A program made the translations under genes and the position numbers. Positions 290-454 of a DNA stretch of 21,675 nt are shown here, piece by piece. The stretch's first letter is position 1, and every line of letters begins with the position of its first letter. The stretch is from the IMG/VR virus record IMGVR_UViG_2728369593_000011. One strand, written 5' to 3'. The DNA comes from a virus. Taxonomy: Duplodnaviria; Heunggongvirae; Uroviricota; Caudoviricetes. Below the pieces are notes generated by a model. The model saw only the letters and a program-made list of their open reading frames with translations. It was not told the origin of the DNA and ran no database searches.

Positions 290-416
290 AACAGACCCGA
301 AGAAAATGAAATATAAGAGAAGATCAACGGGTGAGGAAAAAGTTCAAAAAATCGCTGCCGGGGAGGAAGGAAACTACCGGATGGAAAGAGTCCCCCTAAA
401 GCAGACTGACAGACAT

Positions 417-442
417 CACAAATCCCCGGGTGGGGATTTGTG
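417..442. repeat. Perfect hairpin (11-bp stem, 4-nt loop) inside the IS terminus; core of a 49-bp imperfect palindrome 406-454
   Basis: cacaaatcccc (417-427) / gggt / ggggatttgtg (432-442) are exact reverse complements. Flanking arms ctgacagacat (406-416) and tataagagacag (443-454) pair imperfectly. Confidence 0.85.
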
Positions 443-454
443 TATAAGAGACAG

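Follow-up and report, generated by a model that had tools for sequence, protein, structure and literature searches.

The DNA analysed here, a viral stretch of 21,675 nucleotides (IMG/VR record IMGVR_UViG_2728369593_000011; hereafter the window), begins inside an insertion sequence (IS) whose terminus is followed inward by a conspicuous self-complementary sequence. A preliminary description had read positions 406-454 as a 49-bp near-palindrome in which an IS50-type end of 19 bp is immediately followed by an inverted copy of itself. It had proposed either a structured IS end that blocks read-in transcription or the abutting remnant of a second IS copy in opposite orientation, and had recommended folding the RNA and comparing the end with other copies of the element. 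The question raised by this locus is whether the palindrome is a regular part of the IS and, if so, what it does or once did there.

ISEc13 and the hairpin at its left end

Window positions 1-454, read on the minus strand, are the left 454 bp of ISEc13, a 1550-bp element whose matching places in RefSeq carry the label 'IS4-like element ISEc13 family transposase'. The left terminal inverted repeat, CTGTCTCTTATACACAAAT (436-454, minus strand; IS nt 1-19), has its terminus at position 454, keeps TTATACACA and is identical in two full copies of 1550 bp (L001 and L002). Its earlier assignment as an IS50-type end was borne out: 17 of the 19 bases are identical to the IS50 OE in the IS50-type copy L020, and the adjoining gene encodes a Tn5-type transposase. 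The 5' part of this gene occupies positions 1-289 (minus strand), with the ATG at 287-289 and 96 codons before the window edge, and matches the Pfam family Tnp_DNA_bind (9.8e-21). The full-length ISEc13 transposase matches Tn5 transposase chains end to end (E = 6e-84); in Pfam, Tnp_DNA_bind and DDE_Tnp_1 score above the cut-off and Dimer_Tnp_Tn5 just below it (24.1 vs 26.7 bits). The right end, CTGTCTCTTGATCAGATCT, is identical to the IS50 inside end (IE) and overlaps the transposase stop codon. The IS50 subgroup is defined by ends of the form CW------Y---CA-A--W-, a size of 1350-1550 bp and direct repeats of 8-9 bp (PMC2266710). The left end CTGTCTCTTATACACAAAT fits this consensus, the length of 1550 bp falls within the range, and the target duplications of ISEc13 are 8 bp long (9 bp once). 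By these sequence comparisons, ISEc13 is a Tn5-like element of the IS4 family, IS50 subgroup. The literature search on ISEc13 returned passing mentions and nothing on its structure, regulation, expression or termination.

The minus-strand reading of window 406-454 is CTGTCTCTTATACACAAATCCCCACCCGGGGATTTGTGATGTCTGTCAG, which matches the letters quoted earlier. Within it, CACAAATCCCC and GGGGATTTGTG pair as a perfect 11-bp stem around a 4-nt loop (417-442, minus strand; IS nt 13-38); folding and covariation place the 5' arm at 432-442, the loop ACCC at 428-431 and the 3' arm at 417-427. This is the longest perfect short-loop hairpin of the whole window. As RNA, the 49-mer folds with -21.5 kcal/mol on the sense strand (z = -5.1) and with -18.6 kcal/mol on the opposite strand. 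An 11-bp stem had been called very unlikely by chance, an assessment that did not hold: when the window was shuffled 300 times with its dinucleotides preserved, 11 shuffles (3.7%) likewise gave a perfect stem of 11 bp or more around a loop of 3-8 nt. The hairpin is judged real because it is conserved, not because of the shuffle statistic. The perfect stem and its loop are what remains of the 49-bp near-palindrome. The arms outside the stem (12 and 11 nt) match no better than do 15% of random 11-mers of the window, contribute only ~4 kcal/mol to the fold, and do not keep their pairing in an 82%-identical Salmonella variant (L123). The true feature is a 26-nt hairpin at IS nt 13-38, the stem of which overlaps positions 13-19 of the end. 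An Rfam search of window 1-900, with E values up to 1, matched no family.

Of 5426 complete E. coli genomes, 1894 have matches to ISEc13, at 4084 places in all, and strain E2348/69 (EPEC) alone has 29 copies. The 49 bp are found at 1647 places in 1278 such genomes, with at least 99% identity in 1084 records. Every full copy examined, including L001 and L002, carries them, as do 21 phage or prophage contigs that represent ~18 different insertion sites. Since the 49 bp recur at so many places, they are canonical element sequence, neither a scar nor a second IS end. The preliminary description had reasoned that the palindrome would be a local rearrangement scar if other copies lacked the inner arm; the inner arm is present in the other copies, and comparison among them identifies it as a regular part of the element, with this hairpin confined to the left end. 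A second, inverted IS end abutting the true one, or a local rearrangement scar, is hardly credible as the origin of the structure. The reverse complement of the inner arm does start with CTGAC and end with CACAAATCCCC, and it is loosely IS50-end-like. Against this, the sequence occurs in all copies, and the outer similarity is at chance level (p ~0.15) and absent from L123 and from a diverged E. coli relic (L124). Furthermore, 8 of the 11 inner-arm bases (GGGGATTT) correspond to the 3' stem and the start of the T-tract of the relatives described below, and an ancestral stem and T-tract account for them; the remainder matches at chance level. Abutted inverted ends of the IR-IR junction type were rejected on similar grounds, as the inner arm contains no recognisable copy of a whole end, is found in all copies and derives from stem and T-tract.

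The left end also persists apart from full copies. A solo relic of IS nt 1-43, comprising the end and the hairpin at 100% identity and followed by unrelated sequence, is found on 115 Shigella plasmids (L126:1801-1843, Shigella flexneri NZ_CP020337). Two longer left relics lack the transposase and keep the hairpin. One, of ~200 bp (L125:1801-2000), lies between genes for a site-specific integrase and a replication initiation protein on the IncFIA/IncFIC plasmid NZ_CP025844; the other, of ~340 bp (L124:1801-2140), lies downstream of rluA on a 655-kb replicon.

A hairpin and T-tract in the relatives

Relatives were found by scanning one genome per species for CTGNCTCTTATACACAA. Nextera-adapter remnants at contig ends were discarded from the matches, which left 24 distinct left ends. 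Such remnants of the Nextera mosaic end, bearing sequencing errors (...CTGTCTCTTATACACAACTCCGAGCCCACGAGAC), terminate many public assemblies and MAGs (L013, L022, L028, L041, L084 and L106, among others) and mimic IS50-type ends. The 24 distinct hairpin-bearing relatives come from at least 12 genera, among them Vibrio, Pseudoalteromonas, Neiella, Psychrosphaera, Rheinheimera, Serratia, Scandinavium, Klebsiella, Enterobacter, Pseudocitrobacter, Buttiauxella and Xenorhabdus. In all 24, a hairpin directly follows the 19-bp end; its stem of 7-9 bp, with 3-7 G-C pairs, varies in sequence and encloses a loop of 3-6 nt. The stem is followed by an A and 5-8 T (median 7). This T-tract runs into TTGAAC in 20 of the 24 relatives, and a GATC lies exactly 16 nt further on in 20 of 20 readable cases. 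The stem core CCCC/GGGG plus AAAT/ATTT is common to the relatives, and ISEc13 alone extends it by CAC/GUG into the terminal repeat.

Pairing of the stem is supported by covariation in an alignment of nt 1-50 of 28 sequences, four of them from the ISEc13 lineage. Standard pairs make up 98.7% of the helix cells, and slid controls pair at no more than 63%. Double-sided changes are seen at six pairs and amount to 46 cells, as compared with 14.3 in shuffles, none of 500 shuffles reaching the observed value. RNAalifold predicts the same helix. A terminator scanner flagged nothing in the relatives with full flanks, as it extends the stem greedily through AAAT/ATTT, after which only 4 of the next 8 bases are T. 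Started after the A-tract, the scanner flags relatives, namely CCCTGACGAATTTGTCGGGG + ATTTTTTTGA and CCCCCGTCAAGTACGGGGG + ATTTTTTTGA (L067, L046).

The architecture of the relatives suggests that their module is likely an inward-facing intrinsic terminator, placed between the transposase-binding end and a putative promoter. Polymerase arriving from flanking DNA would transcribe the end, the G+C-rich stem of 7-9 bp, and then A and 5-8 U, upon which the transcript should terminate before the transposase gene. Such a terminator would keep outside promoters from driving the transposase gene, as the one in IS200 has been shown to do.

The putative promoter lies immediately beyond the T-tract. By analogy to IS50, TTGAAC would be the -35 element of the transposase promoter and GATC would overlap the -10 element. 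In ISEc13, the GATC (322-325) together with the following bases, GATCTTCT (318-325, minus strand; IS nt 130-137), is the candidate Dam-overlapped -10 region. The IS50 transposase promoter (T1) is located within the first 80 bp and is Dam-regulated at GATC sites (PMC4265352), and the candidate promoter of ISEc13 is probably Dam-sensitive in the same manner. A promoter-consensus scan of the left end gave no match. An outward promoter-like sequence, TCGACA-18-AAAAAT, is present in one relative (L046:2658-2687, minus strand), its -10 being the complement of the terminator T-tract; the match to consensus is 9/12, near chance expectation.

Other relatives from the same scan, including the IS50-type copy L020, have no hairpin and T run; after its end, L020 shows only an imperfect hairpin and no T run. 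As IS50 and several relatives do without the module, it is not needed for transposition. Among the nine loci with enough sequence, the N-terminal protein identity to ISEc13 is 51% for the hairpin-bearing L072, and that of IS50 to ISEc13 is 50%; the two are equally distant, and elements with the hairpin may belong to a single clade or to more than one. A metagenome scan with the right-end 14-mer TGATCAAGAGACAG yielded 120 loci, nearly all of them chance matches; two have a Tn5-like motif, and neither belongs to the hairpin group.

The split T-tract of the ISEc13 lineage

ISEc13 exceeds the length of its closest relatives with the hairpin by ~62 bp (1550 vs 1486-1488 bp), which corresponds to a 63-column alignment gap, and the extra bases sit between the hairpin and ATTTTTTGAAC. 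This lineage-specific segment of ~63 bp (353-415, minus strand; IS nt 40-102) includes the outer part of the inner arm, ATGTCTGTCAG, and is bordered by two copies of the T-tract. The copy distal to the stem, ATTTTTTGAAC (342-352, minus strand; IS nt 103-113), is intact and runs into TTGAAC, the candidate -35 element. The stem-side copy, ATTTGTGA (416-423, minus strand; IS nt 32-39), is decayed; the same position reads ATTTTTTG in L124 and ATTTGTTA in L123. The insert regions were compared in the window (353-415), L123 (1840-1915) and L124 (1841-1916). In L124, the E. coli relic that is 77% identical, the stem-terminal GGGG is followed by ATTTTTTG, an extra segment of 76 bp, and AATTTTTG before AAC. 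In L123, from a Salmonella plasmid and ~82-83% identical, GGGG is followed by ATTTGTTA, the extra segment is present, and ATTTTTTG stands before AAC. The corresponding order in ISEc13 is GGGG, ATTTGTGA, 63 bp, and ATTTTTTG before AAC. The extra segment thus has the appearance of an insertion that split the T-tract and duplicated 8 bp; it starts with TGTCTGTCAG and ends with CCGGCAGCG, which represent weak CTGYC/GRCAG termini.

T-to-G changes in the upstream T-tract copy lengthen the stem to 11 bp, into the CAC of the terminal repeat, and leave the poor tail AUGUCUGU. Of the two hallmarks of an intrinsic terminator, ISEc13 has the stem of at least 5 bp with a loop of 3-8 nt (11 bp and 4 nt, though with only 4 G-C pairs for a stem that should be G+C-rich) and lacks the U-rich tract immediately 3' of it. 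The G+C core is 4 bp, as compared with 7-9 bp in the relatives. Given the decayed upstream T-tract, the poor tail and the 4-bp core, the ISEc13 hairpin fails the terminator consensus. The terminator and promoter scan of window 1-800 returned no terminator-like site, and the same hairpin with the intact T-tract in L124 is flagged as terminator-like by the scanner. Within the lineage the stem is kept: the substitution A18G yields a G.U wobble in L123 and L125, L125 also has a change in the loop, and a G-C pair is added in L123 and L124.

At a probability of about 0.6, we regard the ISEc13 hairpin as a canonical subterminal part of the left end that descends from an inward-facing Rho-independent terminator shielding the transposase, probably weakened in ISEc13. 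In this lineage, an insertion of ~63-76 bp into the T-tract would have left one T-tract copy on each side. The stem-side copy would then have decayed from ATTTTTTG to ATTTGTGA, by which the stem reached 11 bp and the U-tract was weakened, with the other copy still abutting TTGAAC after a loosely defined second stem-loop. The present hairpin may therefore be a modified, probably weakened terminator or a pause hairpin, acting alone or together with downstream structure and U6, and the odds that ISEc13 itself retains some attenuation of read-in transcription are roughly even. The proposal that the structured end blocks read-in is in part sustained, for the relatives combine hairpin and T-tract with compensatory changes. 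In ISEc13, the U-tract is decayed and the consensus fails, and a block of transcription would be a matter of the presumed function of the module.

The second stem-loop is tentative. In the MFE fold it spans IS nt 51-100 (window 355-404), has CUGC(U)/(G)GCAG as its closing helix and ends 3 nt before the intact U6. The closing helix CUGC/GCAG is kept in L123 and L125, and alternative pairings compete with the structure, which is absent from the L123 and L124 centroids. Its combination with U6 was considered as the 'real' terminator of ISEc13 and is equally tentative, owing to these alternative pairings and its loss from the centroids.

The hairpin might also be a vestige without present function, a leftover of the ancestral stem that is kept by the youth of the element rather than by selection. 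The decayed stem-side U-tract and the shrinkage of the G+C core to 4 bp point in this direction, as does the existence of relatives without any such hairpin. Conservation among the E. coli copies says little here, because most of them are at least 99% identical. However, the stem survives in L123 and L124 despite a divergence of 17-23% in this region, and the changes that did occur, the G.U wobble and the added G-C pair, keep the pairing. In addition, the T-to-G substitutions made at the expense of the U-tract add three base pairs to the stem, a pattern that does not look random; being only few events, they argue mildly against a vestige. On balance we consider a functionless vestige unlikely.

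A different RNA-based role was also weighed. Davis, Simons and Kleckner (1985, as cited in PMC2965389) are said to have described fold-back inhibition in IS10/IS50, the two relatives that have been studied best and for which this strategy is known. Applied to ISEc13, the left-end part of a read-through transcript would base-pair with the transposase ribosome-binding site or with its start codon. A 230-nt RNA of this kind, however, folds with the hairpin closed on itself and leaves the region around the start codon without a stable partner; overall, the fold does not improve on shuffles (z = -1.0). Fold-back inhibition is highly improbable for this hairpin, and descent from an inward-facing terminator is retained as the preferred reading.

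Insertion sites, the right end and known systems

In the window, ISEc13 interrupts gene G, which encodes a lambdoid tail-assembly chaperone (Phage_TAC_2), after 236 of 423 nt; the 5' 236 nt (455-690, minus strand) are 100% identical to G of VT1-Sakai. The insertion target (455-467, minus strand) comprises a presumed 8-bp duplication, CCGGAGAC (455-462), with CCTCT before it (463-467); the second junction lies outside the window. The intact phage gene of VT1-Sakai reads GGCCTCT CCGGAGAC AGAGATG at the same site, so that the window's site can be reconstructed as CCTCT CCGGAGAC AGAGA. The exact G::ISEc13 junction (window 1-520) is absent from complete E. coli RefSeq genomes, in which the best matches consist of the IS part and at most 13 nt of look-alike target. 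The IS has the orientation of the late operon, since the Q, lysis, head and tail genes all lie on the minus strand, and late transcription proceeds from V through G to the left end of the IS. The prophage late operon that faces this end (455-17795, minus strand) contains Q (17022-17795), a nanS-p-like esterase gene, lysozyme, Rz, head genes, V and G. Read-in at this particular copy would be Q-antiterminated late transcription, which is insensitive to intrinsic terminators. Disruption of G should leave the prophage tail-defective. An LpxR-family gene (outer membrane lipid A deacylase; 18185-19147, plus strand) adjoins Q on the opposite strand and is apparently a moron.

Flanks were compared for the window (455-467), L001, L002, L127-L147 and L148:690-715. 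ISEc13 shows a strong preference in its targets, with the consensus CCCCT-N8-AGGGG, in which the 8-bp duplication lies between inverted pentamers. Among 21 distinct left flanks, 16-18 have C at positions -13 to -10 and 13 have T at position -9; the seven sites known on both sides, including that of the window, conform to CCYCT-N8-AGRGG. Several ISEc13 targets are terminator-like hairpins (L001, L002, L134). The flanks of relatives are likewise palindromic, as exemplified by L072, which lies in AAAGGCTGG TTATAA CCAGCCTTT. In a Klebsiella MAG (L058:2429-2470), a host CCCCTCTCC...GGAGAGGGG hairpin encloses a solo end with hairpin from a relative, ~40 bp long and with no transposase gene behind it; this remnant may be a deletion footprint. 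IS231A, another IS4-family element, reportedly prefers GGG(N)5CCC targets, a finding attributed to Hallet et al. in 1994. The two elements thus share a symmetric motif of G/C runs flanking the duplicated bases, but differ in motif, spacing and subgroup, and the likeness concerns the insertion site only and not the hairpin.

The right end of ISEc13 (L001:3506-3550) forms a hairpin of its own, GTCTCTTGATCAG GAGAT CTGATCAAGAGAC, with a perfect stem of 13 bp and -21.6 kcal/mol. The stem includes the terminal repeat, the 3' arm contains the stop codon, and neither strand has a U-tract. Right ends were compared in L001, L067, L098, L123, L051, L063, L072 and L020. Independent right-end hairpins were found in Neiella (9 bp) and in an Alteromonadaceae element (11 bp), and no such hairpin was seen in L020, the IS50-type copy, or in relatives whose left end has no terminator.

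These observations bear on a role at the level of DNA, in which the left hairpin, as a hairpin or cruciform or as duplex, would modulate the use of the end by the transposase or a host protein, maybe together with the 13-bp inverted repeat on the right. The overlap of the left stem with end positions 13-19 is in keeping with such a role, as are the perfect inverted repeat including the terminal repeat at the right end of ISEc13 and relatives, and the want of a proper U-tract at both ISEc13 hairpins. Yet the left stem of the relatives lies almost wholly outside the 19-bp end, and the T run that follows it is the signature of an RNA terminator. The tolerated G.U wobbles fit RNA better than DNA, and Tn5-type transposases bind their 19-bp ends as duplex (PDB 1MUH family). 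A DNA-level role is very unlikely, and the terminator ancestry of the left hairpin remains the preferred reading. Transposase-recognised subterminal hairpins of the IS200/IS605 type were also rejected as a model; these require an HUH (Y1) transposase and no terminal repeats, and ISEc13 has a DDE transposase and 19-bp repeats.

A coordinated design of ISEc13 and its hairpin-bearing relatives can be envisaged, though we think it rather improbable. It would combine the left-end terminator, the right-end hairpin and the choice of palindromic targets, often host terminator loops or REP-like hairpins, such that the element's own terminator replaces the host terminator that it splits. If this were the case, an insertion would hardly affect the host, and the transposase would remain protected from read-in.

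Independently of such a design, a conspicuous structure is explained in an IS that is very common in E. coli, being present in about one third of complete genomes. It should not be annotated as a rearrangement scar. A group of Tn5 relatives appears to guard the transposase with a left-end terminator, if termination proceeds as the module predicts. The intact terminator, the terminator split with an intact T-tract and the terminator split with a decayed T-tract form a natural series that can be used to gauge the protection that such modules afford. The target motif and the right-end hairpin are relevant to forecasting the insertion sites of ISEc13 and its effects on the genes nearby.

The closest homologue among well-studied elements is IS50/Tn5, with which ISEc13 shares a homologous transposase, the OE-like left end, a GATC at the putative promoter and target duplications of 8-9 bp. 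ISEc13 and its group differ in carrying a hairpin and T-tract, the IS50-type copy L020 having its imperfect hairpin without a T run. IS50 depends on RNA structure to keep read-through transcripts from being translated. Left-end terminators are known from other families. According to an excerpt of Naville and Gautheret 2010 (PMC2965389), 'mobile attenuators' are intrinsic terminators at the 5' side of IS elements, which keep these elements from being expressed in transcribed regions, and the modules described here are of the same class, each a conserved terminator inside the element and upstream of the transposase gene. The families named in that excerpt are ISBma2, IS3/IS2/IS600/IS407 and ISL3. 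A protective left-end terminator is a known kind of feature, here in a subgroup, IS50, that does not appear among those named for such terminators in the excerpt. The nearest counterpart in placement is IS200, in which a bidirectional Rho-independent terminator at nt 12-34 of the left end protects tnpA from impinging transcription (PMC4513863, in a passage citing Beuzon et al. 1999). ISEc13 differs in having a Tn5-like DDE transposase rather than an HUH enzyme and a decayed U-tract, and it is known here from sequence. The two hairpins occupy nearly identical positions (IS nt 13-38 in ISEc13), each a short way in from the left end and ahead of the transposase promoter, with a like protective logic, and the A-tract/stem/T-tract symmetry of the IS200 terminator recurs in the relatives of ISEc13.
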